In this document: piece by piece, positions 7,386-42,586 of the stretch | Position numbering within the stretch: position 1 is the stretch's first letter | Layout of the letters: each line of letters starts with the position of its first letter | Translations under genes and position numbers: made by a program | The notes under the pieces: model-generated | What the model was told of the DNA's origin: nothing | Databases searched by the model: none | Seen by the model: the letters and a program-made list of their open reading frames with translations, nothing else | Origin: Fimicolochytrium jonesii | Lineage: Eukaryota | Reading direction: 5' to 3' | Length of the DNA stretch: 64,000 bases | Assembly (NCBI RefSeq): GCF_025526975.1 | Contig: NW_026515668.1 | Span: forward strand, 124,001-188,000

Positions 7386-7544
7386 CCCTAACCCTAACCC
7401 TAACCCAATCCCCCCAGCATCCCATCATCACGTCCTCCAACAAACGCATCCAGCGCAGTGAGCTTCCTCCAACCCAGCGAGCGTCCTCCAACCACCGCAT
7501 CTAACCCTAACCTTAGCCCTAACCCTAGCCCTTAACCCTAACCC
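7386..7544. repeat. Two short interstitial (CCCTAA)n telomere-like clusters
   Basis: ccctaaccctaaccctaacccaatccc at ~7386-7412 and ctaaccctaaccttagccctaaccctagcccttaaccctaaccc at 7501-7544, between divergent genes. Confidence 0.85.
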
Positions 7545-12926: not shown

Positions 12927-15900
12927 TCACCGTGGGGTATGAAGTGTATGCGGCTTCAGGGGGCTGTATCCTAGATCGGCCTCAAAGGGGGTCATGCCGG
13001 TTGACTGGTTTCGTGCGTCATTGTATGCGAATTCGAGGCGGAAAGGTAACGAGACCAGTTGCGTCCTGAGAGGTCGGGGATGCAGGCCAGCATCTGTTTG
13101 ATCGTCCCGATCGCGCGCTCTGTCTGGCCGTCGGTTTGCTGGTGCCCGGTGGTTGCTATGGCGGTGCGGAAGCCGAGGTAATCGGAGACGTTGAGCCAGA
13201 ACTCGGATGTGAACCGGGGGTCTCGATCGGTTACCAAGGTTTTCGGGATACCATGAAGACGGATGATGTTGTCGACGAAGAGCTGGACGGTTTGCGAAGC
13301 AGTGATGTCGCGGCGGCATGGCGCAATGTGGACGCGCTTCGACAGTCTGTCGACTACGACCATCACGGCGTCGTTCCCATTCGCGTCTCTGGGCATGTAT
13401 GCGAAGTCCAGCGTGAGGTCAGTCCAGTGCGCGGTAGGTATCGGAAGGGGTTGGGTCATTCCGGGTTTCTACCGTCGGGTTTTCGCGCGAAGACAGGAGT
13501 CGCATGTGCTGGTGTAGCGCTTGACATCACGTTCGAGATGCTTCCAGTAGAACTGACCCCGGACGCGCTCGTAGGTGTTGTACCATCCGGGGTGGCCGGC
13601 CGCCTCCGCCGAGTGTGAATCGTGAAGGAGTTGTGGGGTGTCAGGGATGTAAAGCCGGTTGTCGTAGAAAAGCAGGCCGTCGGCGTAGCGGTGTCGTCGG
13701 ATGTGAACCGTTTGTGACTGTGGCGCTCGGTCCAGGGCCTGGATGATTTCGATCGCATAAGGGTCGCTCTTGAGCTCGGCGCGGACGATGTCTTCGAGGT
13801 CATTGGTGCTGGCAAGGACCGCGTTCACGTATACAACGCCGCGGCACTTGTGGCACCGTGGGGCGTAGTCGGGGCGTCGGGAGAGGAGGTCGGCGATGGT
13901 GTTGTGTTGGCCGTTCACATAACCGATGGTGTTCTGGTGTTCTTGGAGGAGTTCGACCCATGTGGCTTGGCACCTGGATAGGTGTGGTTGGGTGCGGAGC
14001 CATGTCAACGACTTGTGGTCCGTGAGAGCCGTGAACTCGCGCCCGCGGACGTAGGGGGAAAAGCTCTTGATGGCCTCTACGAGGGCTAGGAGTTCTCGTT
14101 CGTGTACGCTGTACTTGGTCTGATACGAGACCAGTTTCCGGGACCAGAATGCCACGGGGCGTAGTGTGGGTAGAACGTTTTCCCATGTCGCATTCTTGGG
14201 TATGCGGGGGCTCCCCGGCGGGGGTTGAAGTAGGCAAGCGCCCATCGCGTAGCCCGAGGCGTCGATGGTGATGAATAGCTGGGCATTGGGGTCATACCAC
14301 TGGAGTGTGGGTGCGGTGGTAACGGCCTCGCGCAGCGTATCCCACGCCTTTTGTTCAGCGTCGCCCCAGGTGAAGGTCCGGTTGTTGGCCAGCAGGTTGG
14401 AGAGGGGGAGCGCGATCTCGGCGTAGGGGTGTATGGATCCGGACAGGTAATTGGTGAAGCCAAGGAAGGAGCGGATCTCGGCGCGGTCGGTGGGTTGCGG
14501 CCATTCGACCACTGTCGCGATCTTCTCTGGATCGAGCTTCAATCCGTCATTGGATACGACGAAGCCACAGAAAAGGACCGAGGCCTTGTAGAAAGCGCAT
14601 TTGCGGAGGTTGATGTGGAGGCCGTGTGCCCGGAGGCGCCGAAGGACTTCTTTTAGGATGCGTCGGTGCGTCTCGAGATCTGAAGCGTAGATGAGAAGGT
14701 CATCCATGTAGACGATCAAGCCTTGGTCAAGCATGTCGGCGAAGATGTGGTTCATGAGCTTGTTCCACGTCGCCGGCGCTGAGGTGAGGCCAAATGGCAT
14801 CATCTTCCACTGGAAGTGCCCAAATCGCGTGGGGAAGGCTGTTTTGTGAATGTCGTGGGGTGCAATGGGGATACCGTAATAAGCGTCGGTGATGTCCAGG
14901 GTTGTGAAGTACTTGGCACCCTGCAGCCGGTCGCGCATCTCGACAAGGTGGGGGACAGGTGTGCGATCTGGGATGGTCATCTGATTGATGGCGCGGTAGT
15001 CGATGCAGAATCTGAGACCGCCGTCTTTCTTTTTCGCGAAGAGCACGGGCGCGCCCCATGGGGATGACGATGGCTCAATGTACCCTTTCTTGAGCAAGGT
15101 TTGGAGGCGGTCCCAAAGGACATCAAGCTCAGCGGCAGACATGTGGTATAACCGTTGGTATACGGGTTTGGCGCCGTCGCGCAACGGAATGGTGTGCTCC
15201 ACTATCGGCTTTGGTTTCCGGGTGGGGTCCTTCACTGCCGCGAGGTGCTCCTGAAAACGTCGCGGATTTCATCGGGGATGTAGGAGAGGTCTCGAGGTGT
15301 CTGTTCGGCCGGCTCGGGGGTTGCGTGGGTTACATGGACTTGGGCGACGTTGTTCAAATCTAAGGTGGCTGAGCCCATCGCGACGATAGCGCCGCCTTTC
15401 TTGACAAGTCGGCGGAGTTGATGACGCGACACGGGGGTATCGCTTTCGTAACCCGAGTCATGTCCGTCTGTCGCGACTGCCTTGGGCTTTCTATGGGGTT
15501 TCTTGGGAGTCGGTACGCCCGCCACAGCTGCGGTAGGGATCAAATGTTCATTGCCGCGGATGTCGTGGAGGGCTAGGGAGATCGTGGGGCCGACTTGGAC
15601 GAACGAGGGGCAGTGAGCGGTGAACCACGGCAGGCCCACGATCGCGTCGTAGCGTATGGGAGCGACAATCCACGGGAGCCGTTGGTGATAATCGTTGATA
15701 CGCAGGTCGGCGATGGTGTATTTGGACGACGTCCCAGAGGACTCGCGATCCGCATACTCAAGGGTTATCTTTGTTGGGCGCAGGGGGAGGCTGTGGCGTT
15801 TTGCGAATTGATCGTTGAGTACGTAAGTGGTACAGCCGGTGTCCAGAAGGACCGTGGCTGGAACGCCGTTGATGAAGCCAGTGACGGTGAGCGCCGCTTC

Positions 15901-15936
15901 ACCGATCGCAGGGCTGATGGTTCTTTTTCGAGGCAT
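12927..15936 (-). pseudogene. pol: Ty3/gypsy pol (protease-RT-RNase H-integrase), frameshifted
   Basis: ORFs 15232-15936 (protease), 13469-15235 (RT, RNase H, integrase zinc finger), 12992-13459 (integrase core DF...DRD...E) and 12927-13319 (FAYN...TGMTPFE) lie in different frames. Confidence 0.9.
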
Positions 15937-16269
15937 CTAGGTGGCAGCCGGGGGGGATATGCCGCCATGTCGGGCTAGTGACGTTGGTTTGGGGACCAAG
16001 GGCGGTTGTGGACTGTGAGGGGGGTCGGTACCTGGGGCGCCTCGGGTGCTGGCGGTGTGGGCGTTCCGTCGGGGGGTCGACTGGTGTGGGAGAAGCCTGC
16101 ATAGTTCGTCGTACTAGCAGGCTTCACTGAAAATCCCCCTGGGTGGCCTGGGGAACGTCGTGGTCTGGGGAGTCTTGGGGTTCAGTGGTGATTGCGTTGA
16201 TGCGGGCTTTCGGATACTTGGGGCACTCGCTCTGCATGTGGCCCGGCTGGCGACAGCGGAAACAGGCGC

Positions 16270-16820
16270 TGTTATGATCTCGACGACGGGGGCGGAAGCG
16301 AAGTAGAGAAGACAGGGCGAGTGTGATAGGCGACAAGAGATTGTATTGGCGAAACAAGAAACAAGGACTGGAACAGGAGATGAGAAGAACTGGTGTTGAT
16401 CTGCTGGGGAGGAAGGGAATGGACGAAGAGAGGCCGGCTATTTATAGATAGGCAACCCAGCAGATCAGAGAACAACAACAACAAGAGGGGACTGGGGGGG
16501 CGCCAGCTATGCTCCTAGAGCGTGCGTGGCGAGCGTCGAGAGCATTGCTACAGCTGCTGGCTATGGGGAAGTAGTGGGGGGTGTGGAGAAGCCGAGGGGG
16601 GATTGGCAAAATGAGAGGAGAGAGGAGGAGTAACGATATTGCAAGAGGATTGGCGAAATGAGAGGAGAGAGGGGGAGTGGCATTGACATTGACATTGACA
16701 CTGACATTGACACTGACATTGACACTGACATTGACATTGACATTGGCGTTTGACATTTGGCGGTTGACATTGGCGGCTGTCAGTAGTTGAGCTTATGGTA
16801 TGGGCGCGTCGTCCATAACA
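16270..16820. mobile_element. Solo LTR (551 bp) with 5-bp target-site duplication GGCGC
   Basis: Termini TGTTATG...CATAACA form a 7-bp inverted repeat with TG..CA ends. GGCGC flanks at 16265-16269 and 16821-16825. Removal restores the gag zinc knuckle in frame. Confidence 0.88.
16681..16745. repeat. (GACATT/GACACT)n hexanucleotide microsatellite inside the solo LTR
   Basis: About 11 tandem units visible directly. Confidence 0.95.
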
Positions 16821-18016
16821 GGCGCCTTGGTCCCGGAGACGTTGGCGTTCGTTGTTGGTAAGCTTGCGCAGGCGCTTAGTAGCCGGACCGGTGCCCACAG
16901 CGTCGACTGCAGCACGTTTGTTGGAGGGGGGCCACTGTTTCGCCGGAGGTCGTTAGTCTTTGTAGGCTTCTTCGCGCCGGGCGCTGTCGACGGAGTAGAC
17001 GTTGTCGGCTAACGTAACGAGCTCGGCAAGGGACATGGTCAAGCTCGATGGGTTGGCGGCGAGCAATCGTTGGATCCCGGGTGGCAGCCTTTTGCGGAAG
17101 GCGTGGCAGGCTTGTTTGTCTGACATCTCCGGTACCTCGAGGAGGAGTGCAGAGAACTTTTGGTAGTACTCGTCGATTGAGCCCGTCTGGCAGAGCCGTT
17201 CGAGGGCAAGGAGAGCATGCTCTTCCGCGTTGGGTGGAATGAACCGGTTGCGTAGTCCGTCCTTGAACGCTTCCCAGGTAAGGATGGTGGCCTCTGCCTG
17301 CTCGTACCATTGTTCGGCAGTATCTTTGAGCTTGGATGCCGCCAACGAGATCTTCATGACATCAGGGACTTCGGGGATTGCGGCAAAGTATCGGTCGAGG
17401 CGGGTGAGGAATTCGTTCGCCGACTTGGTTGGGCGGGAAATGCCGTCGAACGTAGCGAGGCCTTCACGGAGGGATTTGGCGATGGGGCCTTCGGGGACGA
17501 AGTTGGTCGTGTCGCCGCGCGCTTGCAGCTCAGGGGGTGTTACCGGGGAAGGTAGGTGGGATTGAGCGGGTGAGGCCAGTGTACGGTTTACAGGGCGTAC
17601 GTTGCTGAAGGTAAAGGGGGTCTGAGGTTTGGCGGTGGTGTGGGTTGGGTGTTGTTGGTTTTGTTGGACTTGTAGGGTAAGGAGACGTTCAAGGCGTTTG
17701 GTGTTTTTGTGGGATTCTTTAACAAGACGGTAAAGGTTGGCTTGACGGGCAAGGATATCGGCCTTGTCAGCGGCAGCTTGCTTGCGGGTTTCGTTCACGA
17801 CGTCGGCGAAGCTGGCTTCCATCTGCGCCATGAGTTTGAGGAGGCTTTTAGGGTCAAGCTCCTCTGCGCCGCTGTTGTCGTCGTCCGGGTTGTTGCGCAG
17901 CTCGGCTTGGTCGGTGTGGGAACTCTCGCTGACTTGGTTGTCCTGGCCGTCTTTGTCGTTTCCCTTGCCGTCATTGTTGGGGTCTTCTTCGTCGCCGTCG
18001 TGGGGTGCGTCAACGG

Positions 18017-18067
18017 GTGGATCAGTGCATAGCATAAACCATTGGTTTATGCTATGCACTGATCCAC
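18017..18067. repeat. Perfect palindrome, 25-bp arms around a single central T (18042)
   Basis: GTGGATCAGTGCATAGCATAAACCA-T-TGGTTTATGCTATGCACTGATCCAC. Confidence 0.98.
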
Positions 18068-18831
18068 TATACAATTGCACTGTGCATTAACCGTACTGAC
18101 TCCACTCAACACTGTGCATTAACCGTAACGGCTGCTGAAAGTGTAATGCATTAACCGTACTGGCGGGTGTATGGTGTAATGTATTAACAATGTACCCTAC
18201 ACCTTCGGTGTTATGCATTAACCGCACAAGCCTTTCAGCCATTAACCATCCTTGCGCATTTGGGAAAAGGGGGGCAAAGTCAAAATTCCCCCCTACATGC
18301 GTCGAGTCCAACCAACCTTTCTACTACTTCCCCATTCCCTGTTCCATGTAGGGGGGCAAAAAGGCAATTTTCGAACCAACTCTCACCACCAAAAAGAGAC
18401 ATCCTTTTCTCATTCTTCTTTTCAAAACTTTTCATATATCCTCTCATAGGTTTAGAAACTGCCAAAATGCCCCCCCTGTATCTTTTTCCCGTCTGCGGGG
18501 GCATTTTTGAAAAAGGGGGGCAAAACAAAAGGCCGCCTACATGCGTCTAGCCAAACTACCCTTCCTATCTATTCGCCCATACCATATTTCATGTAGGGGG
18601 GCAAAAAGGCAATTTTCGAACCCACCCTCTCCCACACAAATCACACTTCTTTTCTCATTATTGCTTCTCAAATACTTTTTATATATTCTCTCATAGGTTT
18701 TGAAACTGCCAAAATGCCCCCCTACATCTATTATCCCGTCCTCACTCTCTCTTTTCTTTCCACTTCTCTACATTCCTCTAGGGGGGCATTTTCACTTTGC
18801 CCCACTTCTCAAAATGCCCCCCGCTTATTCT
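18061..18831 (+). repeat. Left terminal inverted repeat (771 bp)
   Basis: Reverse complement of 41622-42392, with only a handful of substitutions and two compensating 1-nt indels seen by eye. Confidence 0.97.
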
Positions 18832-21515
18832 ATATACGTCTCTCCTTCTCTGGTCGCCTTTTTCAGTCCGAGGAACCATATGTTCCCTCTTATTTTTCGT
18901 TCCTTGATTTGAATGGTTGTTAGTTCTTTGAAGAATTGCTGCTTTCCGACGCGCCTCGATTGATCGAGAACCGTAACGGAATACTCCTTGTATAAATCAG
19001 ATCTCGTCACTCGGTCCTCATCACTTCCTGTGATATCGTAGTGGAACTTCAACCATTTCGCTGCTGCCAAACTGTTCGCTAGGTTCTTTTGGGTGAAGGC
19101 TCGTACCTCTGCAGGGACTTCAATGCTCATATTGAGGGTTTTATCTTCCTTCACAAAACGTTTGCGGAATATGCCAATGAGAAGCAAGATGAACTCGTCC
19201 CGACATGCATTCGTTTTGAAGTATCCTTTCAATTTCATATCACCTTCTTTTTGAAGTTGTTCCTCCTGAATTCCATCTCCCTCTTCCTCGATTGGTTCAG
19301 AGCCATTGAGAGTGAAACTGTATGGAAACTCTTGCATTCGCACCCGATTGCACAATGCGAGGTCTATTTTATCAAAGACCGGGTCTTCATTTGTCTGAAC
19401 ATTGGTTTGCCCAGTGATTGGAAAACTGATGGGTTTACCGTTAAGTGTTCTCACTGTTATCTTATCATTCCCTGACACTTTCTTGAACATTTCAGATAAA
19501 AATCGATCATTCTTATTTGTTTCGCTTGTCATCAGATACCTCTTTCCGAAGCAATTGTATAGTTGCGAGTTTGCTTTGTCAACATCTTGCTGCTCTCGGG
19601 TAAAGTTTTTCTTGTCCAAGGTATAGAAGTAATTTCCAAACGTAACAGCAAGGAGAGTACCTTCCACACCCTTTCCGTTCCGACCCGGCCCCTTGAGGAT
19701 TGTGAAGATTTCCTCAACTAGTTCTCCGTAGAGACACCTCGCAACATTGCAAAGTCGGTAAGTCATCAATTCTTCAGTTCGGAATATAGATTGGTAAAAG
19801 TTTTCAATCTTCTCACGCATCTCAGGGCTTCGTGTCGTCGGATAGTTGTAACCACATGTGAATAGTATGTAATCATCCCATTTGATGGGTCTTGCCTCTC
19901 CTTCAATCAGGTCGTACACTTTATCGTTAAAAGCAAATAGGTGAGGCTTTGAGAGAAAAAGTTCGATGCAGGTGTCGTTTGCGATACAGAGCCGTTCCAC
20001 GTTCTGTGCTACATTGATGGAGTACGTAGTCTCCTCGATCAGCATTCGAAACTTTTCGTAAATCAATCGCAGTTTCAAATACTTACCGTGCTCACTTTTT
20101 TGTGATTCAAAATCATCTAGTAGTTTCTCAAAACTGCTAATCAACGTGTCTGCAATCTGAAGATTCAAGTCGCTATTTCGGACCCCGCCCTCATACTTTC
20201 GCCAGATATTATCTTTGCCTAGAACAAACATCAAGCCGCTTGAATGTTTTAATAAAGTCTCACCTCGCTCTTCAATGAACCATTCAGCGGTATTCTTGTG
20301 GCTAATATTCAAAATTCGGCGGAAATCAAACTTCTCCCAACCTGTTAGACCTTCCAAATCTTCACAAGTTACAACAATATCCTTTTCTTCACTCGTTTTT
20401 GCGGGTTCAGTAATGGGCGGGAACAAGTCCAAGATCTTTTTGCTTTTATGAACATAGGTTTTTGAGCGTTCACAGTGCTGACATTTGAACGTGAATTTTT
20501 TTCGATCCACTATGAAGAATATTTTGGGAACGGAGACATCGTGTTCTGCGTGGTGCAACATGCAGTATGTGGTTCTCAAAAATACCACAATCGCATCCTC
20601 ATATTGTTGTACGGCCCCAAAATCTCTTTCCAAATATTCCGTTTTTCCACAGAGTTTGGTAACTGAATCGTAAATAGTGCTGATTACCTCCGTATTAGCA
20701 TCGTTGTAAATAGGATATTTTGCCTTTTTCTTCTTTGGTTGCGGTTGGTCTTCAAGGTCCGAGTCCGGAACCAGGACAAATTCATCATTGGCAGGACGCT
20801 TTCTACTATCAGATTGAATTGTCCATTCAACCGGGGTCCAGTCCGCCTCTACATATTGAATGATATACGAAGAGATTGGTGCATCCGGTTCGCTTTTGAT
20901 GAGAAGTCGGTTATCCCAACGATTTTTGACTTTGTCCACCATCACCATGGACCGATTGTTGTCATAGACAGAAAGATCAAAAAATCCATCCTTGAAATTG
21001 TAGTCTCGAACAACATCCGGGAAGTCGGACAAATCTGGGATGAATTTCTTGAGTTTCTTCTTCATTTCATTCCGGGTCGTATACATACCGTCTGCCCATA
21101 GGCGATAAGAGACTTTATATCCACCACCGGTTTCGACGTATTTACCATTTTTGTCCTTGGTGTGCTTAGGAGCGTATCCCATTGTACGGAACGCAGAATG
21201 AAAAGTAATATCCTCATTTAAATACAAGGAGGTAAATACTTTATCAACACCTTTACGGATTTCAGTCTCGACTTCTTCAGAGGGCAGATCGGATTCTTCC
21301 TCAAATCTCATATCGAAATCGACAAACAATTTGATCTTGTCATTGGCGCCCAATTTTGTAAAGTTTTCGGTAAGCCACTTGTGTTCCATATGTTTCTTTT
21401 CGTATTCTTCGAGTGTCCAATTGAACTCGGGAACACCTCCGAAGTAAGATTCCTTGAAATGATAGATGTCTCTGATAGGTTTGGATTCAACGTGAGCAGC
21501 AAATTTGGAAGACAT
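18825..21515 (-). CDS. AEP-type primase / Zn finger / D5-like SF3 helicase fusion (896 aa)
   Basis: N-terminal KLFVDFD, KVSYRL and FDLSVYD primase-like motifs. C..HHAEH...CQHC metal site. FAFNDKVYDL (D5_N), Walker A GPGRNGKG, LMTSE, KKVSGNDKITVR. Stop codon lies inside the TIR. Confidence 0.88.
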   Translation of the reverse strand: MSSKFAAHVESKPIRDIYHFKESYFGGVPEFNWTLEEYEKKHMEHKWLTENFTKLGANDKIKLFVDFDMRFEEESDLPSEEVETEIRKGVDKVFTSLYLNEDITFHSAFRTMGYAPKHTKDKNGKYVETGGGYKVSYRLWADGMYTTRNEMKKKLKKFIPDLSDFPDVVRDYNFKDGFFDLSVYDNNRSMVMVDKVKNRWDNRLLIKSEPDAPISSYIIQYVEADWTPVEWTIQSDSRKRPANDEFVLVPDSDLEDQPQPKKKKAKYPIYNDANTEVISTIYDSVTKLCGKTEYLERDFGAVQQYEDAIVVFLRTTYCMLHHAEHDVSVPKIFFIVDRKKFTFKCQHCERSKTYVHKSKKILDLFPPITEPAKTSEEKDIVVTCEDLEGLTGWEKFDFRRILNISHKNTAEWFIEERGETLLKHSSGLMFVLGKDNIWRKYEGGVRNSDLNLQIADTLISSFEKLLDDFESQKSEHGKYLKLRLIYEKFRMLIEETTYSINVAQNVERLCIANDTCIELFLSKPHLFAFNDKVYDLIEGEARPIKWDDYILFTCGYNYPTTRSPEMREKIENFYQSIFRTEELMTYRLCNVARCLYGELVEEIFTILKGPGRNGKGVEGTLLAVTFGNYFYTLDKKNFTREQQDVDKANSQLYNCFGKRYLMTSETNKNDRFLSEMFKKVSGNDKITVRTLNGKPISFPITGQTNVQTNEDPVFDKIDLALCNRVRMQEFPYSFTLNGSEPIEEEGDGIQEEQLQKEGDMKLKGYFKTNACRDEFILLLIGIFRKRFVKEDKTLNMSIEVPAEVRAFTQKNLANSLAAAKWLKFHYDITGSDEDRVTRSDLYKEYSVTVLDQSRRVGKQQFFKELTTIQIKERKIRGNIWFLGLKKATREGETYIE

Positions 21516-21620
21516 GGTGCTTTACTAAGAATACACTTAGAAGTTTAAATGGCATTTAAACGCAAGTAACAAAAATAAACATATATGTACCAATAAAGAA
21601 GCATCGTTATTGCTACAAAG

Positions 21621-21902
21621 ATGTACATTCCTTACAACTATATTGCATCACTCTTTGAGGATGGAGAAATCAAGACTGTCACAGGCCGGAGCGTCCGTGA
21701 TCTTGCTAGAAAACTAGATATTGCCGCATCCACTGTTGCGCGAATTTTGGGTAATGTAGAATCATGCAGGACGCGGAGACACATCACCATCAAAAGGACA
21801 CTGAAAGAGCCTTTGAGTACGAAATCAGATGATCGGGATCAATCCGAATCGAATTCTATCTTGAAACCTTTAGGTTCCTTTGACTTGACCCAACAATCGT
21901 AG
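21621..21902 (+). CDS. Small putative helix-turn-helix DNA-binding protein
   Basis: SVRDLARKLDIAASTVARIL fits an HTH pattern. Divergent from the primase gene. Confidence 0.55.
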   Translation: MYIPYNYIASLFEDGEIKTVTGRSVRDLARKLDIAASTVARILGNVESCRTRRHITIKRTLKEPLSTKSDDRDQSESNSILKPLGSFDLTQQS

Positions 21903-22045
21903 CAGTATGGCCGATTTTTGATGTAGGGAATAGGTTCTGATTGGCATTCAGCGGTCTTGCATTTTCGAGTTCCTTCCGGGTAATTAATTTTGCCTGAAGG
22001 AGAGCGCTTTGGATACCAAGGACGCATTGTTTCTTTGAAATTCAT
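21839..22045 (-). CDS. Small putative zinc-finger protein (68 aa)
   Basis: CKTAEC...YCYDC cysteine pairs. Overlaps the convergent HTH ORF. Confidence 0.4.
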   Translation of the reverse strand: MNFKETMRPWYPKRSPSGKINYPEGTRKCKTAECQSEPIPYIKNRPYCYDCWVKSKEPKGFKIEFDSD

Positions 22046-22107
22046 TCAAATTGATATGTACAAGGAACTATTTACTTATTTACAATTGTAACGCATATTT
22101 CCACAAA

Positions 22108-24399: not shown

Positions 24400-24531
24400 T
24401 TTTTTACCCTTTTATATTTTTTCGTGGCGGTTTTCCTTTCCGCAAACGGGAAAGAACAACATCCGCAACCTCACCTAACTGTAAAGTAAATGATATCAAC
24501 ATGTAGAAACAGTACCCAGGTGGTAACCGAC

Positions 24532-24845
24532 AGGAAACACCCCCGCGGGTGTTGGAAAACGGGAGGTAAAAAACACCCCCGCTTGCTCTGCTCAGTTATG
24601 GAAAGAAAACACCCACCGTTTTTTGTTTCGAGAAGAGTCAAATCACCCCCTCTTGGGGGTGATTTGTTTCTGTACCATTTTTACTCACTCCTCATGTGGG
24701 TGAATGCTTAATTTTAGTAACCTTGCCGCGGGGGTGGTTTCGGCTGAATAGACGGCGCAGGTGTGGGCGATTCTGCATGATCATACTCGGGGAAGTGGGG
24801 GTGGTTCTGTACTGATTAAAGTTTTGTTTGGGGGTGGGTGTTTTC
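24532..24845. repeat. Symmetric array of AAA(C/T)(A/C)CCCC motifs around a 12-bp hairpin
   Basis: Forward copies at ~24535, 24570 and 24606. Hairpin CAAATCACCCCC-TCTT-GGGGGTGATTTG at 24639-24666. Inverted copies at ~24730, 24797 and 24831. Confidence 0.7.
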
Positions 24846-24966: not shown

Positions 24967-26119
24967 ATGGTTTATGCACAACCAAAGAACGACACAGCAA
25001 TGAACATTGAACTAGCAAAGAAACTTATCAACCGTTATGCCGATACCGTCCAACAAAAGAATGGACGGATAGGATTGGCTGCGAGTAGTCGAAAAACGTA
25101 CCTCTCTGCCTGTAATGCACTTGAAGCATACGGGACTCTTGATCCGAACGTTCTATCATCGCCAACCGATGTCATGAAAATCTTGAAAAAGAATTACCCC
25201 AAAGAGTGGAGCGAATTGTACAAAGGTGTTGTCTGCTATGTTCAAAATTATGACAAACGAGGAAAAAATAGGATTGTACGATTGGCTTTCGTCTAGCCTC
25301 TACGGTGAAACTGCAAAGAAACGATTCCTAGATGCGTGCACAATGGACAAACTTACGCATATTGACGAAATGGGAGGTTTCTATCTCAAGATCAATAGCG
25401 ATCGTTGTAAAGAGATACAAGCCCGCGATCTCGTAATGGATAAAGAATATGAAACGAAGCGCTTCATTGAAAAAGACCCTTTAATCAACGCTCTTTACGA
25501 GAAATTGGATCAACTTAAAGAAAAGGCGGTCAAAGACCCTTATAAGTATGGTTTGTTGCTTGGAGCGGCTTGTTTCGTTGGGTCGGATGTTATTCAAAGA
25601 GCGGACATTGGCCAAGCAAAGTTTATGCACATTTCCGAAGCGGATAATGTTACATTTGATACGGAAACCCATACCTTTCTTATAAAAATATGTAATAGGA
25701 ATAAGGGGGACACCGATGTTCTTATTACGGTTATCGATGACATTGTCAAAAGGCACATTGATAATCTGGTTGATATTCGTAAGGCCAAAGGACAGAGTAA
25801 ATTGTTTGAAAAAGCGCGAAACGCAGGTAAACCCTATGAAGGCGGAGGTTTTGGAAGGGCTATGAAGATCGCTTGTAAACAACATATCGGAAAAGAACTC
25901 GGAGTCAATGAACTTAGAAAAATCGTAGTGATTGACTCGATCAAATTGGATAACGGAGATCCTAGGGTCCAAAAAGAGTTTGCGAAAAAGCATGGTCATT
26001 CCTATGCAACACGACAAGTGTATTATAACCTTCACAGGGAGAACGAAGGCTCATCTAATGATTATGCGATGGATATCGACGATCTTAATGACGATTTAAA
26101 TCTAGATGACAAGTTTTGA
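24967..26119 (+). pseudogene. Tyrosine recombinase (YR), split by one frameshift near 25200
   Basis: ORFs 24967-25296 and 25226-26119 overlap in adjacent frames. C-terminal catalytic pattern: QRAD (R), RNK (K), VNELRK (H-x-x-R position), HGHS, VYY (Y). Confidence 0.75.
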
Positions 26120-26126
26120 AAACCTA

Positions 26127-27365
26127 TTATCCATTTTGCTCTTCATACTCGGCTATGGCCTCCCGTGCATTTTCGAGATTCCCTTCATCTTCCCAAGTTG
26201 ATTGGGACGCATCATAACCACTCCATAGAACCTTGTACTGCTTTATCCTTCTGTTGCCTCTACGTACTACTCTTGAATCAAGTATTGAATCAATTTCGTA
26301 TTCGTCGTTTTCATTTGGATCTGGCTGGGAAGCGATGTTTGGTACGGTGACAGTTCCATCAGGAACCAAGCGAAGATCGTTAGCAGATGTTAAACCGGGA
26401 AGTCTTGTTCCATCCATTCGGTTTAATCTATACGATGAAACATAACCTGCATAGTTACTTTGCACTTTCCCATCAATTCTATAAGTTTGTGACGAGAAAT
26501 ATCCCACCTTTGCGCGCCTTTTGATACCACTCGGTAACGGTATTATCTTTCTTACAACATCTCCCACTTTAAATTCGTTCAAAACTGTTGATTTCACTCC
26601 TTTCAATTTCTTGTTCCGTATGCGATCAAATATGGCTTCATGTTCATCTTGTAAGATTTCGTTTGAAGCCTTCCCTGTCGCATACGTTTTCGTGTTGTTT
26701 AAATTATCTATGAGTTTTTGAAGATAATTTGGCCAATCCCGTTTTCCGAATTGGATCGAGGAATAGATCAGATTTTTTATATTTTTGTTAACGGATTCTA
26801 TCTGTCCTTGTCCTTGCGGGACACCGGGTTGTCCGAACTTCCACTCCACGTTATTCGAGTCAGCCCACTCTTGCACCAGACCTTGAAATTCCGTACCTAC
26901 ATCGGATGTGAAACTTACTAATACAGCGCCATCCCGTTTCATTGTTTCTAGAAACTTGACAACAGTGGCTTGATCTTGTGTCTTCATTGCCATACTGTAC
27001 ACTTTTTTGGTGAGAATGTCTGAAGCGTTGACAGAATACTTATATCCATTGTATGCTACGGACAGCAAGTTTATACAATCGATCTGGTAGTTTCCTTCTT
27101 TTCTGGCCAAAATCGGTTTTATCGAGCCTCGGGATCCCATAACTTTTGTGCTCCTCTGCCAAATCTCTTGCTTCTTGAGAAAGTCGTTAAGAAGGGTTCT
27201 TTGCGAAATCCTACTATTTGGAAACGCTTTTCTATATGCATACCACAATTTGTCTCGTCCTAGAAAGTTTTGATTCTGATAATAAAACGTAGTGAGGTTC
27301 CGGAGATCCTCGGCAGTGATGGGGTCATATCGAAGAGAGGAGGTTCCTGTGTTGTCGGAGTCCAT
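26127..27365 (-). CDS. Retroviral-like (RVE) DDE integrase with C-terminal chromodomain (412 aa)
   Basis: YQID...SDVGTEF...QGQIESVNKNIK catalytic D-D-E. Chromodomain EYEIDSILDSR...YKVLWSGYDASQSTWEDEGNL. Confidence 0.93.
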   Translation of the reverse strand: MDSDNTGTSSLRYDPITAEDLRNLTTFYYQNQNFLGRDKLWYAYRKAFPNSRISQRTLLNDFLKKQEIWQRSTKVMGSRGSIKPILARKEGNYQIDCINLLSVAYNGYKYSVNASDILTKKVYSMAMKTQDQATVVKFLETMKRDGAVLVSFTSDVGTEFQGLVQEWADSNNVEWKFGQPGVPQGQGQIESVNKNIKNLIYSSIQFGKRDWPNYLQKLIDNLNNTKTYATGKASNEILQDEHEAIFDRIRNKKLKGVKSTVLNEFKVGDVVRKIIPLPSGIKRRAKVGYFSSQTYRIDGKVQSNYAGYVSSYRLNRMDGTRLPGLTSANDLRLVPDGTVTVPNIASQPDPNENDEYEIDSILDSRVVRRGNRRIKQYKVLWSGYDASQSTWEDEGNLENAREAIAEYEEQNG

Positions 27366-27893: not shown

Positions 27894-28628
27894 TTAATGC
27901 GTTTCTGGTTGCAATTCTTTAAAGACTCCTTCGTTTGTCGGGCTTTTCAAATCGACGTAGAGCGCATGATAAGGTTTGACAGTATATTTCTCTGCTAAAT
28001 TTACAAACTCCGATTCTGACAAATGACAGCGAATCTCACCCGCAATCTTCTCGTACTGTTTCTGATTAAGTCGATACAAAATCCAATGGGTGGAATTCAC
28101 TCGTTGTAAAGGAGTGAGTTGTTTCGTGTCATGCAGGCTGCATAAAAGACTCCCCCCTGCGTGTCGAAAGCGGGAGTAAAGTAAGTCTAACATCTGTCGG
28201 ATGCCGCTCGATATCAGTTCAGGTTCTTTAGGCTCCTTTCCGATTGCGGGGCCATTTTCTTTTGCGAGAATTCCGAAATCATCGAGGATAAGAAGAAGGT
28301 GATTTTTGGATTTGTCTTGTTTATAAAGAAGTTTCTGCTTCTCGAAAAGGTTGTTCAGAATGTAATTCGATACTACGCTGGACATGTATACATTATCGCA
28401 TTTCTTCAAACTGGTCCATTCCGGCGAGTCAGCGCTTGGAGAGAAAACCACAACATTTTCATACGCTTTTGCACAATTCTGGATGAGATTGATAATACAA
28501 GTAGTTTTCCCTGCTCTTGAACTCCCGACTAGAGTCAAAGTGAAGAATTTCTTCGGATAGTCATCGGGCGTTTTGTCCTTTAGGTGTATCTGATATTCGG
28601 AAGGAATTTTCGGTTTAGCAATTCTCAT
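27894..28628 (-). CDS. A32-like (FtsK/HerA family) genome packaging ATPase
   Basis: Walker A GSSRAGKT, Walker B LLILDD, SRFRH motif and LTPLQRVN. Adjacent to capsid genes. Confidence 0.9.
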   Translation of the reverse strand: MRIAKPKIPSEYQIHLKDKTPDDYPKKFFTLTLVGSSRAGKTTCIINLIQNCAKAYENVVVFSPSADSPEWTSLKKCDNVYMSSVVSNYILNNLFEKQKLLYKQDKSKNHLLLILDDFGILAKENGPAIGKEPKEPELISSGIRQMLDLLYSRFRHAGGSLLCSLHDTKQLTPLQRVNSTHWILYRLNQKQYEKIAGEIRCHLSESEFVNLAEKYTVKPYHALYVDLKSPTNEGVFKELQPETH

Positions 28629-30000: not shown

Positions 30001-31224
30001 ATGTCAACAAATCCCGTTGTTCCTTCAAACTGGATCTATAGTAGCAGACAATTTTCGATGCATTCAGACGCTCTCAGCGAAAATATTGCTGTATATCGCA
30101 CAATCAAGGAGACGTTTAGTTCAAAATCACCTGGAAATGCTATAAAAATCGTGGTTGATTCCAATAGTTCCTTTTTGAGACCTCAACGTTCGTATCTATC
30201 GGGAACAATTTCTGTGAAGAACGCGGATGGCAGCCCCGTCACGGATGCGCAGATTTCTCAAATCGGGGCGATGGCTTGCTTCCGAACGATGAACATAAAA
30301 TTTGGCGGAAAAGTTGTAGACGAAATTGAAGATATGCCAAGTTTTGTTGCGGACACTCTCCAGTTTGTGGAGGCAGAGAAACGAAAATACCTAAAATATA
30401 ACGAAGGAGCAGGTAACGCGGATGCGTTCAAAAATCCCAACGGAACTTTCACATTCAAACACCATTTGTTAGCAGGGTCCATGAGAAATTTGAACGGAAA
30501 CCCGATTCCACTAGCGATTTTGCCAAATCAATCGGTGGAATTGACATTTACTTTGAACACACCACAGCAAGCCTTTACAAACGTCGGTTCTGGAGTATAC
30601 TTTGAAGTTTCAAATCTTCGTTATGTAGCACAACTTGTGGTCCCGAGTGCCGCTTATATGTCCGCATTGTGGTCCGGGATAAGGGCTGGTAAGTATCTTG
30701 AAATGGATGTAATAGGCGTTCAACAACTCTCCAATGTATGTAGTGGTGCGTCACAGAACAACTTCATCCTCCCACTTACAAACGGCCGGACTGTCGGATT
30801 AACACATAGGTTTAGAGACGATAATAAATACGCCACTACATCAGGGGACAAAAGTTTGATTTATGATACAGCGAACTTGAAGTCATGGCGTTACCAGATA
30901 GGACAATATAGATTACCTTTGACCGAAGATTTCCAAATAGAAGATACGGTTATGATAGGCAACCTCTCCATGAACGACAACACATCATACGCCTCTGAAG
31001 ACCTGGACCTCGATAACTTTTACAACAAACAGTTCGTAATGCGTTATTCGTGGCAAAGCGCAGATGAAGATTCCAGTAGCGCTTTGAACCTACTCGGAGG
31101 CTCCGGAAACGTACATCTAATTACGACACATAATTTACCCGCCCCTAGTACCGCCGTCGCATTGCAAACAACCGTCTATTCACAACGCACCATCTTGATT
31201 GGAGCAACCGTCGATATCGTATAA
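30001..31224 (+). CDS. Major capsid protein, putative double jelly-roll (407 aa)
   Basis: FLRPQRSYLSGTI and FRTMNIKFGGKVVDEIED resemble PLV MCP N-terminal motifs. Size, beta-rich composition and context next to penton and ATPase agree. Confidence 0.8.
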   Translation: MSTNPVVPSNWIYSSRQFSMHSDALSENIAVYRTIKETFSSKSPGNAIKIVVDSNSSFLRPQRSYLSGTISVKNADGSPVTDAQISQIGAMACFRTMNIKFGGKVVDEIEDMPSFVADTLQFVEAEKRKYLKYNEGAGNADAFKNPNGTFTFKHHLLAGSMRNLNGNPIPLAILPNQSVELTFTLNTPQQAFTNVGSGVYFEVSNLRYVAQLVVPSAAYMSALWSGIRAGKYLEMDVIGVQQLSNVCSGASQNNFILPLTNGRTVGLTHRFRDDNKYATTSGDKSLIYDTANLKSWRYQIGQYRLPLTEDFQIEDTVMIGNLSMNDNTSYASEDLDLDNFYNKQFVMRYSWQSADEDSSSALNLLGGSGNVHLITTHNLPAPSTAVALQTTVYSQRTILIGATVDIV

Positions 31225-33306: not shown

Positions 33307-36300
33307 ATGAGCGGTCTAAATTCCCGAACCTCAAGCGGAATCAGAGTGCTTGAACGAACAAATCTCGTTTCTCCTTTAGTGACCAATAGTCTTCGTGCTA
33401 ATGGAGAGAACGTATCAATTGATAATTTCATTCAGCAGGCTTTCAAAAGGTATCAAATGAAAACGGACCGATCCTTGTGAATGACATCGTTGAGAGCGAA
33501 GATGCGATTATTCACAAAACCGAAGGAGTGGCTTCAATTGAAGTAGTCCATGACAATATGGAATTTCCACTTGCAAGAGACGACGGAAGCCGAACTGTTT
33601 CCCTTTTGACAAACCTGCCTCTTGGAGTAAGTCAGGACGGATTGACTTTGTTCCACGATCAGACTCTTTCAGTGAGCAATGAAGGTTTGACTGTAAATTT
33701 TCCCCCGCCTGATCTGGAAAATCTGCAAGAACCCTTGTCAAGAGACGATGAAGGACTTAAATTGAATTTTGATGAGGATTCATTGGAGGTGAATAATGGT
33801 AAATTGGAAGTTGTCAAAGAGCCTTTGACAGCCCCTTTGACGCGTAGCGTACAAGGACTCTGTCTTGATATTGACTCTACATTGACAGTTGAAAACGGTC
33901 AGTTGTCAGTTGTTCAAGAAAATGTTGAAGCGATTGTTGACGAGGCTGTTCGAGTAGAAGTTCCGCTTTCAAAAGATGCAGATAAGGCTATCCACCTCGA
34001 TTATGGGAAAGGGTTGAAAGTAAACGATGAAGGGAACTTGGAAACCGACGTTGATACAGTGATTGTTGGGAGAGGGGCTATTTCAAACGATAAAGCAGGA
34101 AGTCTGGCACTCGATGATCTCCTGCAAGAAGGTTTTGATTCCCTTGCGGACTTTTTAGGAGAAGATACGGATGTTGATACAACCGTTGTGCGTTTGAGGA
34201 CATCTGACGACTTTCAACAGACTGGGAACAAATTGGCGATCCGTTCGAAGGGTATGGGGCAAATACCATTCTATTCTGCATTATCGGGGTTAAATGGAGA
34301 CAGTAGTTTTATGTATAATGAAACACTCAATGAACTACATGTTCCGCATGTATACGTTAACAGCAACTTCAACCCTTCGAATAATGAAGTGGTGACATCC
34401 GGGAACGTAGAGCAATTGTACCAAGCAGGGTCAGGTATAGACATATCCGGAGTGTCCAATGGTCGGCGTACTATCGATGTTAGAACAGATGCAAGTTTAG
34501 CAATTGACTCTTCACAAAATCTTTCAGTAAATCCGTCGGCTATCGTTGACAATAAAGGTGTTCGCATCGTAAATGATAAAATTGCGATAGGACTAACTTT
34601 TCAACCTGGAAATGGCGGATTGAAATTAGAGAATTCGAATCAAGTGAAACTCGCTCCATCTGTCTCAGGTTCAATCACATTCGATGGTAACAACACGTTC
34701 GGTGAGAAACTCACAGCAAGTAACGGAGTTAAACGCATAGAAGATGATTTGCAGTTGGATTTACAGCCTGGTGATTCGACTGTTACGGTAGCAGGCAATT
34801 CGATTAAGGGCGCATATACAGGATCTAATGGAGTGTCAGTTACGGGAAACACTATTTCCGGGGCCTACACCGCCGGAAACAATATATCCATTTCAGGGTC
34901 GAGCATCAGTTGCACATATCAACCTGAGCCGGAAACACCAACGGTAATTACCGGCGCTTTACCTATCATTGTAACTGGAGCAGATAAGGAGTATAACATC
35001 GCGAAACAACCTTTGGTTTTAACAGGGGGCTCCGGAATCCTCGTTGTTGGCTCCGAGGAAACCGGTTTCAATATCTCCTCGATTCAGCCCTACAAAAACC
35101 GGAAAGAAGATGATGATCCAGAAGAGAAAAATGAGGATTCGGAGCCCAGTGGCGAATCTGATCCTTTAACAGCATCTGGATCTAATCCCGTAGTCTCCGT
35201 TACCGGACCCCTTTCAACAATCCTTGGAGGCGCGGTTGGTCTCATTGGCCCTGCGGCTGGCGCTCCATTTGCCACATCTGCTATCGGTGGCGTCGGGGGT
35301 CTTCTTGGAGGACCTGCTGCAGCAGCCGGAATCCTTGGTGGTTTCATCGCTGCAAGTGGTCGAGAGAGAAAGAACCAGAAAGACGCAAATGGTAACAATG
35401 TAGTGGATTCAAAGGGAAACCCTGTTCCAGATCCAAACGGCTCACAAGTTATCATTGCAACTTTCCCTAAAACGGATGATACATCCTGTGATGTTACAAG
35501 ATTACTTTTTGACACTCCACCTCCATGTTCATATCTTGGTATTGCAGGAGAGGTCCCACAGCAGGCAATCAACTTGCAGATGCTCCGCGAATACGATTCT
35601 ACAATCATACAGCCAACTTATTCAAATTTGATAAGTCAGAATACAAGTCTTCTTTTAACTGCTATCGATAGTAAAGTCGCAAAAACGGATACCATTCCGT
35701 ATGCGAGAATAACGGGTGCTCCAGATCTCACCATCTACGAGAAGAAATTAACATTTGCTGGACCTATAATTTCCAGAGATACATCTAATACCATTTCCGT
35801 TAATACCGGAAATATCACTACCCTTGGGACACTCACATCTCTTAACGTAACAGGCGCTTTGACCGCCGGCTCCATAAGCAGTCCCACTCTGAACAATTAT
35901 CTATTATCAAGTGTTGCTTCAACAACGTATCAACCTCTAAATGCTCGTCTTACTAATTTGGGGAACATTGCGCCAACAAACACGTACATGCTTATCGCAA
36001 GCGGAGGCAATTTCATTCAATTTAGTCCTGCAGATGTTCGTGCAAATCTCTCATTAAAAAATCTGAGTTTGCTCGATACTTTAGACTACACTAGTTCGGC
36101 GTTGGTGAACAAACCTACGCTTGGTTTGCTTGCAGCACTTAGCAGTATTGACTATGCTTCGACGTACATTACTGGAAAGCCAACTCTTAATTCTCTTGCA
36201 GCACTGAGTAATATAGATTACACTTCGGCTTTACTTACAAACAAGCCTTCGCTTGGTTCACTTGCAGCACTGAGTAGTATAGATTACACTTCGGCTTTAC

Positions 36301-39300
36301 TGACAAACAAGCCTTCGCTTGGCAGTTTGGCTGCTAAATCCGTTATCAATCTTGCAAGCGCAGATGTCACCGGTATTCTTCCTGTTGGAAGTATTGACCC
36401 GAACATTGTGCTTGCTGGAACCGGTTTGACTAAAAATTCTCAAACTCCAAGTGTCAATTCTGTACAGACACAAATCACATCGGTCGGAACCCTTACTTCC
36501 CTCTCAGTTAGTGGTGCATCTACATTTACTGGAGCGGTAACGATTCCTGCTCCCACCGTCGCATCAAACCCAGCAACAAAATCATATGTGGATGGATTGA
36601 TTTCTACAACATCCGGAAATGCTCAACCTCTTAATCCTAAATTGACTGTTATTTCCTCATCTACCCCAACTGTTAATAATTTTCTCGTAGGAGATGGAAG
36701 TAATTTTGTCTCAACGACTCCATCAGCATCTAGAACAGCACTAGGGCTCGGTTCCGTGGCGTTAAAGAACACCATCACGCTCACAACAGATGTGACAGGT
36801 ATCTTGCCTCTTGCCAATATAGACGCCCAAGTAAGCACGAAAGCCTACGTCGATGCTCAGACATCAACAGTTTGGCGCAGGATTGTCAAAGTCAGGCACA
36901 GCCATTTCAGTCAACACGGATCAGTCGGCTGTTATCACCAAAGTTGGAACTCTGCAGGGGTTGAGTGTTACAGGCGACGTGACCATATCAGGGAACGCCA
37001 TCATCTCGACAGCCCCAACAGCAGATACACATCTCACAAATAAGACTTATGTTGATACGCTTCTAAGTGCAGGAACCGGTTTAACACGTACAGGAAACAA
37101 TTTCTCTGTCAATGTGGCTCAACCTCAGATAACATCAATTGGGACGTTATCATCATTGAGCGTCGGTGGGAATGCGAGTTTTGCTGGAGATGTCACGGTG
37201 TCAGGAAACGCTGTCGTCTCAACAGCACCGACCTTAGCAAATCATCTTACGAATAAGACTTATGTTGATACGCTTCTTAGTGCTGGAACAGGTTTGACAC
37301 GCACTGGAAACGCCTTTAGCGTAAATCCTGCTCAGCCTCAAATTACAAGCGTTGGAACTCTATCATCTCTGAATGTTGGTGGAAGTCTTCAAATTGCAGG
37401 GACGACTGATACTAGTTCAATCACAACTGGCGCTTTACAGGTCGCCGGAGGGGTTGGTATCTCGAAATCATTATACGTCGGTGGATATGGAATCATAAAA
37501 GAATCTACAGCCGGAAATGGACCTTCTGTAGGTCTTATAAACTCAAACGGTGGAGGTTGGACTTTGTGGCATATAGGTCAAACTAGTGGCCTTGGAACTA
37601 ATAATTTCGGCTTATACAACAATACTGCCGCAAATCTTGCGTTATCGGTGAATGTGACAACGAATGCACTAACTATCAATTCGGTATCCGACTCCAACGC
37701 TACAAATGCTGGCGCTTTACAGGTCGCCGGAGGTGTTGGTATCGCCAAGAAATTGACGGTAGGAAGTGATGCGAGTTTTGTCGGGTCAAATCAAAGTATC
37801 TTTTGGTACAACGGTTCGGTATCAACACCCACATTTGGAAGCAGCATAACGGGCAACGTTTCAGCAGCAGGGTATTTTTCCTCAAATTCGGCTATTGGCG
37901 ATATGGTAATTCGGGCACAGTACAATAATTCACCGACAAACTTACGATTCGCTAATGGACCCGGCGTATCAAATCTTGATATATTGACAAATGGAAATGT
38001 TCTAATCAATACAACAACCGACTCCTCTTCTACAACAACTGGCGCTCTAACAGTTGCTGGAGGTCTAGGTGTGGGAAAATCTCTATTTGCTGGTTCAGCC
38101 GCCACGGGAAGTCATACAATGCAAGTAAATTCAACTTCCTTTGACGTTTTGAAACTTCAAAGTCTTTCGGCATCTGGGTTTTCTTCTATCGGTTTTGTTA
38201 ACAACACAGGAACAACGGTGGGAGCATTCGGGTTCGCAGGAGTCAATACGACCGCTCCAAATGCTGGAAACTTCTTCCTATACTCCGGGTCTAATGCCAA
38301 TTTCATAATCAACTCTAACCTCCCCAGTGTACAAATTCTTTCCACCATAGATTCTACTTCGACAACATCAGGTGCATTTCTGGTGAGAGGTGGAGCGGGT
38401 ATTGCAGGAAATGTCAATCTTGGTAAAGATTTGACTGTTAATGGCACAATCTACTCCAATATTGCCTCAACCGGACCTATTGTTAGCAGCCATCTTGGGA
38501 CACCGAACTTGGCAGCGGGGAGTTTCTCAACACTTCCAATTGGAGTAGGAGCGGCTACAAATAACATGGCCAGATTGTACTTTAACTATGCTGGAGCAGG
38601 TCTTGCAACTAATACGTTGGGTTTGGGATTATGGAATGCACCTCAAGGGCTTACAGTGGATGGAACGGGAAAGGTTGTTATTCCTAATGGTTCCATCGGC
38701 AATTTAACAGTGTCAGGAAACATGAATTTCACCGGGAATCTTGCAACAATCAGTGCAACTGGTTCACAAGGTCCTCTCTCCATAGATCCGAACCAAAGTT
38801 CCAACCCTTATGTACGGGTATGGGACGATTTACGGGTGGTAGGCGATTTTTCCGTGTGGAATTCGGCCGAAAATACCACTTGGTTCAAAGTCTTTACAAA
38901 TAATGGTGTTGCATCTGTCTTTACCACAACCGATTCCACAGGCGTTGGATCAGGCGCTCTTCAAGTGTCTGGAGGCGCATCTGTAGCGAAATCTTTATAT
39001 GTTGGGGGAAATCTGAACAACAGTGGTACTGTATCGATCTTGACCACTACTGATGCCACTTCTAACGCATCAGGCGCTCTTCAAGTGAGTGGAGGCGCAT
39101 CTGTAGCGAAATCTTTATATGTTGGGTCAAATCTCAATGTGACCGGTGATTTGAACAGTCCTGCCTTAACATCGAAAACTACTTTGTTCCCTTACCCCAC
39201 AACGCCAGCAACAGGTTCCTCATGGAACGGCTATACAGTTACAGCCTCCAGCGAATACACGTATGCAAATGGAAACGGTGTAGATGGATACACTGGTCAT

Positions 39301-40233
39301 CCATTCGATGCGTACATGAACGCCTCCATTGCATCCAGACTGCGATGGCAAACCAGTTCCACAAGTACAGCCAATTTAGGTTTAGATGGAACAACACAAA
39401 GTCTTCATTACTCTTTATTGAGACTCCCGTCGGCCATTGCTATGAGTTCAATCAAACTCACCGCCTACCTGATGGACGCCGTGGCGATGCCTACTACGTT
39501 CTCCGTGATTGCCGGAACTACCGAGTCCGCTATGGTAACCATTGCAACGTTTTCGAATATACCTGGTTCTACTTGGACCACTGATGGTAATTCATTTAGT
39601 TTTGCCAACGCCACTGCTTACCCTGTTTATGGTATCTCATGGGCATACGCAAATCAAACCACAACCGGAGGGGTCGCTATCCGAAATATTCAATACAATC
39701 AAGCCGTTCCCAAAGCGACCCTTGTCACTGCTTCTGCAAACACTATAGATGTTTCCGGTGCGTTAACTACGGGCACATTCGCAGCAAGTGGTTCAGCAAC
39801 TGTGAATTCCTTGACATGCAATACGAACGTATATGCTTCACAAATCATTCAATCTGCTGTTTGTATCAAAGACGGTGTTGTAGATACGTTGTTGACCAAT
39901 GGAAACGGTTATACAGGCGGGTTTGGTCCGATAATGTGGAAAGCAGGTATGTCTGGCGTCGTTGCTCATGTTAGTTTTATGGGATATATGAATTCGAATA
40001 ACACTCGGGTAACAATAACTGTTCAAATATTGGATCAATCCTCTACCGTAGTCGCCTCTAGAGCAGTCTCGTACTACTGTGATATAAGCAATTATCAGAC
40101 TCGCTACCCATTCAGTTTTCAAGTGCCGTTGCTGTTTTCTTCGACGAATACGCAGTTAAGCGCAAGGATTGTCATACCAACATCTATAACATTATCTAAT
40201 TCATATCTCAACTTTTGGACGCAATGCTACTAA
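33307..40233 (+). pseudogene. Giant fibre/spike gene (~2,300 codons if joined), apparently broken by two frameshifts (~33440 and ~36871)
   Basis: Short ORF 33307-33480, ORF 33477-37043 and ORF 36853-40233 overlap in different frames. Fibre-shaft-like repeats (LTVENGQLSV, GKGLKVNDEGNL), TKxYVD repeats and GALQVAGGVGI repeats. The repeat pattern continues across the 36871 break. Confidence 0.8.
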
Positions 40234-41621: not shown

Positions 41622-42392
41622 AGAATAAGCGGGGGGCATTTTGAGAAGTGGGGCAAAGTGAAAATGCCCCCCTAGAGAAATGTAGAGAAGTGGAAAGAAA
41701 AGAGAGAGTGAGGACGGGATAATAGATGTAGGGGGGCATTTTGGCAGTTTCAAAACCTATGAGAGAATATATAAAAAGTATTTGAGAAGCAATAATGAGA
41801 AAAGAAGTGTGATTTGTGTGGGAGAGGGTGGGTTCGAAAATTGCCTTTTTGCCCCCCTACATGAAATATGGTATGGGCGAATAGATAGGAAGGGTAGTTT
41901 GGCTAGACGCATGTAGGGGGGCATTTTGTTTTGCCCCCCTTTTTCAAAAATGCCCCCGCAGACGGGAAAAAGATACAGGGGGGGCATTTTGGCAGTTTCT
42001 AAACCTATGAGAGGATATATGAAAAGTTTTGAAAAGAAGAATGAGAAAAGGATGTCTCTTTTTGGTGGTGAGAGTTGGTTCGAAAATTGCCTTTTTGCCC
42101 CCCTACATGGAACAGGGAATGGGGAAGTAGTAGAAAGGTTGGTTGGACTCGACGCATGTAGGGGGGAATTTTACTTTGCCCCCCTTTTCCCAAATGCGCA
42201 AGGATGGTTAATGGCTGAAAGGCTTGTGCGGTTAATGCATAACACCGAAGGTGTAGGGTACATTGTTAATACATTACACCATACACCCGCCAGTATGGTT
42301 AATGCATTACACTTTCAGCAGCCGTTACGGTTAATGCACAGTGTTGAGTGGAGTCAGTACAGTTAATGCACAGTGCAATTGTATAGTGGATC
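41622..42392 (-). repeat. Right terminal inverted repeat (771 bp)
   Basis: Reverse complement of 18061-18831. Ends ...GTATAGTGGATC. Confidence 0.97.
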
Positions 42393-42586
42393 TGGGGTAG
42401 GGCGTGGTTGCGCCGTGCGAGCGAGATCGTCATCGGAGTTTAAAACTTTGGACTCCGCTCGTGCGCTCTGCTGCGCTTTCGTGGTTGCTTTGGTCGTACA
42501 TTTGGCCATTCTTGCAGGTGTTTATCGTAAAAAAAATGGCGGGTTTGTCGTGCGGGTTGTCGTCGTCGTTCTTCCAAAGAAGGGTG

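Follow-up and report, generated by a model that had tools for sequence, protein, structure and literature searches.

How Polinton-like viruses (PLVs) without a protein-primed polymerase (pPolB) replicate and integrate is treated as an open question in the part of a preprint on Halocafeteria seosinensis considered here (10.64898/2026.07.28.741278), and a locus in the chytrid Fimicolochytrium jonesii raises it in a concrete form: one end of an integrated viral element carries a perfect palindrome, of which the other end keeps a few base pairs. What kind of genome end does this palindrome record, and by which enzyme did the element enter its host? With the palindrome one-sided and the junctions exact to the base, the locus yields predictions of the free end's structure and, to within 7 bp, of a cut site, and an element carrying both a tyrosine recombinase (YR)-like gene and an rve (RVE) integrase gene sets the one enzyme against the other. 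The stretch analyzed, here called the window, comprises 64,000 nt of contig NW_026515668.1; positions are numbered from its first base and the features are collected in Table 1.

Table 1. Features of the viral element and of its junctions with the host, in order of position in the window.
Feature	Position	Strand	Basis or remark
Host Ty3 gag, 3' part, left flank	16953..18023	-	Retrotrans_gag, E 2e-14
Perfect 51-bp palindrome, left virus–host junction	18017..18067	.	Repeat and fold computation
7-bp GTGGATC, left copy	18017..18023	+	Candidate crossover core, or host G plus a TG.. viral end at 18018
37-bp centre, left end only	18024..18060	.	One GCATWAACC per arm, oriented toward the axis
Left TIR, 771 bp	18061..18831	+	GCATWAACC at 18084, 18116, 18148 and 18215; ~246-bp internal repeats
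AEP (C962R-like) primase fused to D5-type SF3 helicase, 896 aa	18825..21515	-	Domain and family matches
Second D5-type SF3 helicase, 763 aa	22108..24399	-	PHROG primase families, best E 8.7e-16
Tyrosine recombinase-like gene, two frames (24967-25296, 25238-26119)	24967..26119	+	Motifs by eye and Atlas neighbours
rve integrase with chromodomain, open frame, D96/D155/E190	26127..27365	-	Pfam rve, E 1.6e-7; Chromo, E 3e-14
A32 packaging ATPase	27894..28628	-	Pox_A32, E 1e-7
Double jelly-roll major capsid protein	30001..31224	+	Model pLDDT 57; matches PBCV-1 and SGIV capsids, E 7e-12
Fibre-like gene, two frames (33558-37043, 36853-40233)	33558..40233	+	Av_adeno_fibre, E 3e-13
Right TIR, 99.1% identical to left	41622..42392	-	Terminates in the 7-bp repeat
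7-bp GTGGATC, right copy	42386..42392	+	Host DNA directly after
Host Ty3 gag, first 41 codons, right flank, ATG 42509	42387..42509	-	Reading frame and related gag start

Recomputation in the window confirmed the 25-bp perfect arms (18017–18041 and 18043–18067) that a preliminary description had placed around T18042, for a total of 51 bp (25-1-25). The runner-up perfect palindrome in the 64-kb window has 12-bp arms and the longest arm in the base-shuffled window was 7–10 bp in all 20 of 20 shuffles, so the 51-bp palindrome lies far beyond chance. With DNA parameters it folds to a single hairpin of −27.4 kcal/mol. The 18-bp arm found only at the left end has no other copy in the window, its best other match being 14/18 inside a TIR repeat, while each palindrome arm contains an exact GCATWAACC and the left TIR a further four; 9 of the 10 exact matches in the window lie in the palindrome and the TIRs. 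Because the arm is unique and shares the repeated motif of the TIR, the palindrome is viral rather than copied from the host, and the description of it as a viral, terminal structure stands: a Polinton-like virus of 24.4 kb is integrated here, and the palindrome forms its left tip. An exact 24-base arm gave 0 matches in metagenome contigs and prokaryote genome contigs. The sole viral-contig match of a degenerate palindrome pattern (L001:90-110) lies in an unrelated phage-like contig and was set aside as chance.

That the palindrome is a fold-back artefact of the assembly or the library at the virus–host junction is barely credible. It is known from a single assembled copy of this end, and sequencing error could account for two frameshifts in the element, but neither the host flank nor the right end offers a template for the 18-bp arm, the inversion amounts to just 25 bp, the host gag continues in the correct frame on the other flank, and palindromes of similar size are published (10.64898/2026.07.28.741278, in the part considered).

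The element itself (18024–42385; 24.4 kb) has a GC content of 43% versus 55–56% in the flanks. Its double jelly-roll capsid and A32 ATPase, together with a length within 15–40 kb, TIRs, an integrase and a replicase, identify it as a Polinton-like/MELD virus. The capsid search returned 13 homologs, 8 of them named and all 8 of these from chytrids; a search in phages returned no homolog. A minor capsid candidate (28684–29433), proposed by size and position, is without a Pfam, PHROG or NCBIfam match, and exact protein look-ups gave a match for 1 of the 25 window proteins tried. Powellomyces chytrid fungus MELD virus 5 has a helicase with which the primase-helicase shares 50% identity over 507 columns. 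A pPolB was found neither in a Pfam scan of 17 element ORFs nor, as its motif DTDS, in any of the six frames, which agrees with the claim that the virus lacks one, and the AEP primase fused to a D5-type helicase likewise bears out the primase-helicase as its replicase. The two D5-type SF3 helicases are adjacent (18825–24399), with an AEP domain recognized in the outer one only. In two non-coding gaps (24490–24670 and 40640–40810), AAA(A/T)C(A/G)CCCC-like motifs cluster in both orientations and are candidates for promoters or for sites of protein binding; the first gap also contains a perfect palindrome with 12-bp arms (24639–24666). The fibre-like (33558–40233) and YR-like (24967–26119) genes are both split over two frames, by decay after insertion or by sequencing error.

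The preliminary description had joined the two ends of the element (42392 to 18024) into an inverted repeat of ~1.58 kb. Its arithmetic holds (771 + 18 = 789 bp per arm, 1579 bp in total), but only the central 51 bp are perfect and the long arms are imperfect: in the TIR alignment 765 positions match, 5 differ and 2 are one-base gaps (99.1%). The rejoined molecule is a construction on paper and not an observed molecule. Since the joined ends of any element with TIRs give a long inverted repeat, the 37-bp centre (18024–18060) is the only new information in it. Each TIR also contains two ~246-bp repeats (18259–18740; 41713–42194), 81–82% alike and rich in G6/C6 inverted motifs, and a 58–67 bp piece of the inner TIR end recurs 803 bp inside the right TIR (40829–40895), perhaps an older TIR boundary.

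In its integrated state the palindrome is probably the opened, double-stranded form of a fold-back genome end, and we consider it likely that the virus has ends of the hairpin type. A hairpin tip can well have an odd centre, as flip-flop ends illustrate. In Halocafeteria seosinensis, the considered part of the preprint describes palindromes within TIRs, next to target site duplications (TSDs), in virophage subtypes 1, 2, 5 and 6 as well as in PLV subtype 4; they measure 52 nt in one subtype and are found mostly alongside replicases other than pPolB and particular RVE integrases, and the authors propose hairpin priming (10.64898/2026.07.28.741278). The main idea of the preliminary description is thus already in print, as a proposal there too. 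The type of end is known, and what differs here is the one-sided layout: a PLV with a palindrome at one end and a 7-bp core was not found in the literature searched, although the supplements of the Halocafeteria preprint may contain such cases.

The motif pair at the axis and the repeats in the TIR could also be taken to mean that the genome is circular, has no hairpin-ended form and uses the palindrome as an attP- or dif-like site for a recombinase or resolvase, or as an origin; the facing GCATWAACC boxes would then be bound by the YR or by the helicase. PLVs with a circular genome in which head-to-head inverted repeats adjoin a YR and a primase-helicase have been described (PMC11296320, in the part considered). 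We regard this as very unlikely here: the junction does not coincide with the axis, a linear genome would be in keeping with TIRs of 771 bp, and the relatives are described as linear with terminal palindromes in the pages of the Halocafeteria preprint drawn on above (10.64898/2026.07.28.741278).

The virus interrupts a minus-strand Ty3 gag of Fimicolochytrium jonesii, a chytrid of the Spizellomycetales. The gag frame is continuous across the junctions and stays open whether the host supplied 1, 4 or all 7 of the shared bases; its start at ATG 42509 is supported by the similar N-terminus of a related gag (P0028). This was the one close relative among 1391 matches of the gag search, and at the junction it is too diverged to discriminate between routes of insertion. 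Around this site the host Ty3 is decayed (12930–18023, 42393–42600): the integrase frame stops near 12930, and no matching second LTR was found between the flanks tested. A TGGTA primer-binding-site-like motif follows an LTR-like end near 42597, an array of TGACA(T/C) hexamers lies between gag and protease (16666–16756), and interstitial telomere-like CTAACC repeats occur farther left (7388–7537).

As the right end comprises only the first 7 bp of the palindrome, the same 7-mer stands at both junctions. Other than this 7-mer, no direct repeat that could be a TSD was seen at the junctions, except a G-rich 6-mer 10 bp off; this TGGGGT (18001 and 42393) was rejected for its distance, its G-rich composition and the break that, as read from the sequence, it would make in the gag frame. 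The 7-bp repeat alone is no proof of a crossover because a right end cut inside the palindrome gives an identical repeat; a probability of 1e-4 for the shared 7-mer was dropped as evidence for the same reason, truncation of the palindrome giving the repeat for free. Viral sequence about the 7-mer is asymmetric (3/13 matches) and, in contrast to a standard YR core site, lacks inverted arms directly next to a core; homology does not extend past the 7-mer (1/10 and 3/10 matches).

Since the palindrome is present at one end only, the virus may have inserted by a single crossover beside it. The reading we favour, at a probability of just under one half (about 0.47), is that a virus with a hairpin-type tip inserted by one conservative crossover at GTGGATC, probably through its own YR-like protein; we infer the joined intermediate, the crossover and the enzyme from the layout of the integrated copy. 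Replication of the free genome would rely on the AEP primase-helicase and dispense with a terminal protein, and copying through the tip, or recombination between two tips, would produce a TIR–palindrome–TIR junction, for which the "double-D" circle of AAV offers an analogy. The 7-bp GTGGATC in the stem of this junction would then recombine with the same 7-mer in Ty3 gag in one conservative crossover, which would leave the palindrome entire on one side and a stub of 7 bp on the opposite side. Such a crossover accounts for every base: the left end has 37 bp that are absent at the right, and gag is open from its real start. A precedent comes from the three integrated PLVs with a TSD in Table S4 of PMC7805220, in which the one with a YR and a helicase has 7 bp (a single table row) and the two with an RVE and a pPolB have 5 and 6 bp. 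According to the part considered of another preprint, YRs are correlated with AEP/PolA replicases, as DDE enzymes are with PolB (10.64898/2026.10.13.758929).

Several observations count against the crossover. The 7-bp repeat would also result from any cut within the first arm of a palindrome at the right end, and the viral sequence around the 7-mer is asymmetric. Of the two candidate enzymes, the YR-like one has a frameshifted gene and rve an intact one. Position 18018 begins with TG like a retroviral-type end, and the Halocafeteria palindromes adjoin TSDs and are linked to RVE in the preprint as far as considered (10.64898/2026.07.28.741278). The YR assignment itself depends on residues picked by eye in ORF 25238–26119 (R121, K156, R227, H252/254 and Y262/263, at YR-like spacing) and on its nearest Atlas clusters, which are unnamed Preplasmiviricota; Phage_integrase is annotated in 1 of 30 of them, on 16% of its members. 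The likely N-terminal part of the protein lies in another frame (24967–25296), which makes this copy a frameshifted gene. No Pfam, PHROG, NCBIfam or PDB sequence match was obtained for the protein, its single-sequence model (pLDDT 34) is too low to use, and a search for homologs accepted 0 of 568 candidates and none in phages or viral contigs.

The intact rve integrase with a chromodomain, whose rve match scores 32 bits against a Pfam cut-off of 32.6, was omitted from the preliminary description and offers a rival route of insertion. On this account the tip is of the same hairpin type, and the virus was inserted by the rve enzyme with a full palindrome (5'-TG…CA-3', from 18018) at both ends inside a short TSD; the right palindrome and the TSD were lost at integration or later, down to a stub of 6–7 bp that would look like a crossover core. 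The open rve gene, the insertion into a retrotransposon and the TG at 18018 speak for it, as do the published Halocafeteria layout and a palindrome size (49–51) in the range of the published 52 nt, both from the considered part of that preprint (10.64898/2026.07.28.741278). Moreover, a host contribution of 1 or 4 bases, and not just of 7, is compatible with the gag frame, and any cut inside the first arm yields a direct repeat at both junctions. What the route demands is a second event that ended 6–7 bp into the arm, removed the TSD exactly and kept the gag frame (1 in 3); no remnant of a TSD lies beside either junction, and the left palindrome is still perfect while the TIRs have diverged by 0.9%, which indicates that the palindrome is not very unstable. 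Insertion by rve fits nearly as well as the YR crossover, and we hold it to be quite possible, with the balance somewhat against it.

A stronger form of the favoured YR crossover, which we think unlikely, is that a single end site serves as both hairpin telomere and attachment site, the YR recombining the stem of the folded tip, 19–25 nt from its apex, with a 7-bp match in the host. The distance of 19–25 nt between axis and shared 7-mer was recomputed and is correct, the 7-mer being a candidate crossover only. If this were true, every insertion would show the complete palindrome on one side, left or right, and a stub of 7 bp on the opposite side. Precedents, for the favoured crossover too, come from bacteria: integron attC sites are described as recombining away from the axis of a folded palindrome (PMC4792948), and CTXphi is integrated by Xer single-strand exchange (PMC3442271), in both cases as given in the parts of these papers considered.

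For the suggestion that the YR acts as a protelomerase we found no support: the protein had no Pfam, PHROG, NCBIfam or PDB sequence match that would tie it to telomere resolvases, and its gene is frameshifted here. The preliminary description had itself pointed out that an odd centre differs from protelomerase sites, and rightly so; the core of telRL is even, at 6 bp (PMC13236599, in the part considered), and the palindrome is centred on a single base. In the phaeoviruses treated in the same part of that paper, resolvase and integrase are separate genes that act on separate sites (PMC13236599). A dual role in resolving and integrating is chemically possible, because few changes switch telomere resolvases to recombinases and because they can fuse hairpin ends (PMC13221069, in the part considered).

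Related copies exist in the same organism and make the question decidable from existing assembly data. Primase models 97–98% identical to the one in the window, as well as models of the right-end gene, all labelled Fimicolochytrium jonesii, lie on at least four other contigs; a further model (P0026), identical over 855/855 aligned residues, was counted as this locus. One primase model (P0023) runs into TIR sequence and equals the left-TIR version of the window at 56/56 residues before ending short of the palindrome, so the TIRs are shared among copies. Should the sister copies have palindromes at both ends, the present locus would be merely another, damaged, example of the published kind. On one contig, the accessions of the right-end gene model P0015 and the primase P0023 differ by two; on another, those of two primases (P0024 and P0025) differ by four; this spacing may reflect head-to-tail junctions, tandem copies or deleted elements. 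No related locus was confirmed in viral contigs or metagenome contigs.

Among known systems, the closest counterparts are compared here from the parts of the respective papers considered. The Halocafeteria elements share with the chytrid virus a palindrome of ~50 bp at the TIR extremity, a non-pPolB replicase, an RVE integrase and a size of ~24 kb (10.64898/2026.07.28.741278). There, however, palindromes flank the TIRs beside TSDs, whereas here a palindrome stands at one end only, with the 7-bp stub at the other and no TSD outside the palindrome (one may have been deleted); the part of the preprint considered also contains no PLV with both an RVE and a YR, while the chytrid virus has both, in a fungal host. 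The MELD viruses of the Powellomyces chytrid fungus resemble it in their chytrid host family, fibre-like proteins and non-PolB replicases, but the N-terminus of the primase-helicase is an AEP here in contrast to the PolA label in the record of MELD virus 5, and the word "hairpin" is absent from the main text of that paper (PMC8502044).

With respect to the junctions, the best likeness is a YR/helicase PLV of the Gossevirus group in Phytophthora, which combines a YR and a helicase with long TIRs (1587 bp) and a 7-bp repeat at both junctions; it differs in its host group, and no palindrome is reported for it (0 mentions in the main text of PMC7805220). Like attC and the attP of CTXphi, the chytrid palindrome would be recombined off the axis by way of short homology and left on one side of the insert. 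Those systems are bacterial, a single-strand stage for the chytrid virus would be an analogy, and the arms of attC are imperfect with extrahelical bases, unlike the perfect palindrome described here (PMC4792948, PMC3442271). Finally, the phaeovirus EVEs of Ectocarpus, considered along with telRL of phage N15, provide a eukaryotic virus with YR integration through short attP/attB homology and proposed hairpin telomeres (PMC13236599). Their attP and telRL are separate sites for separate enzymes, with a homology of 2–5 bp and an even 6-bp telRL core, whereas in the chytrid virus, with its odd centre and no protelomerase detected, one site would serve both purposes.
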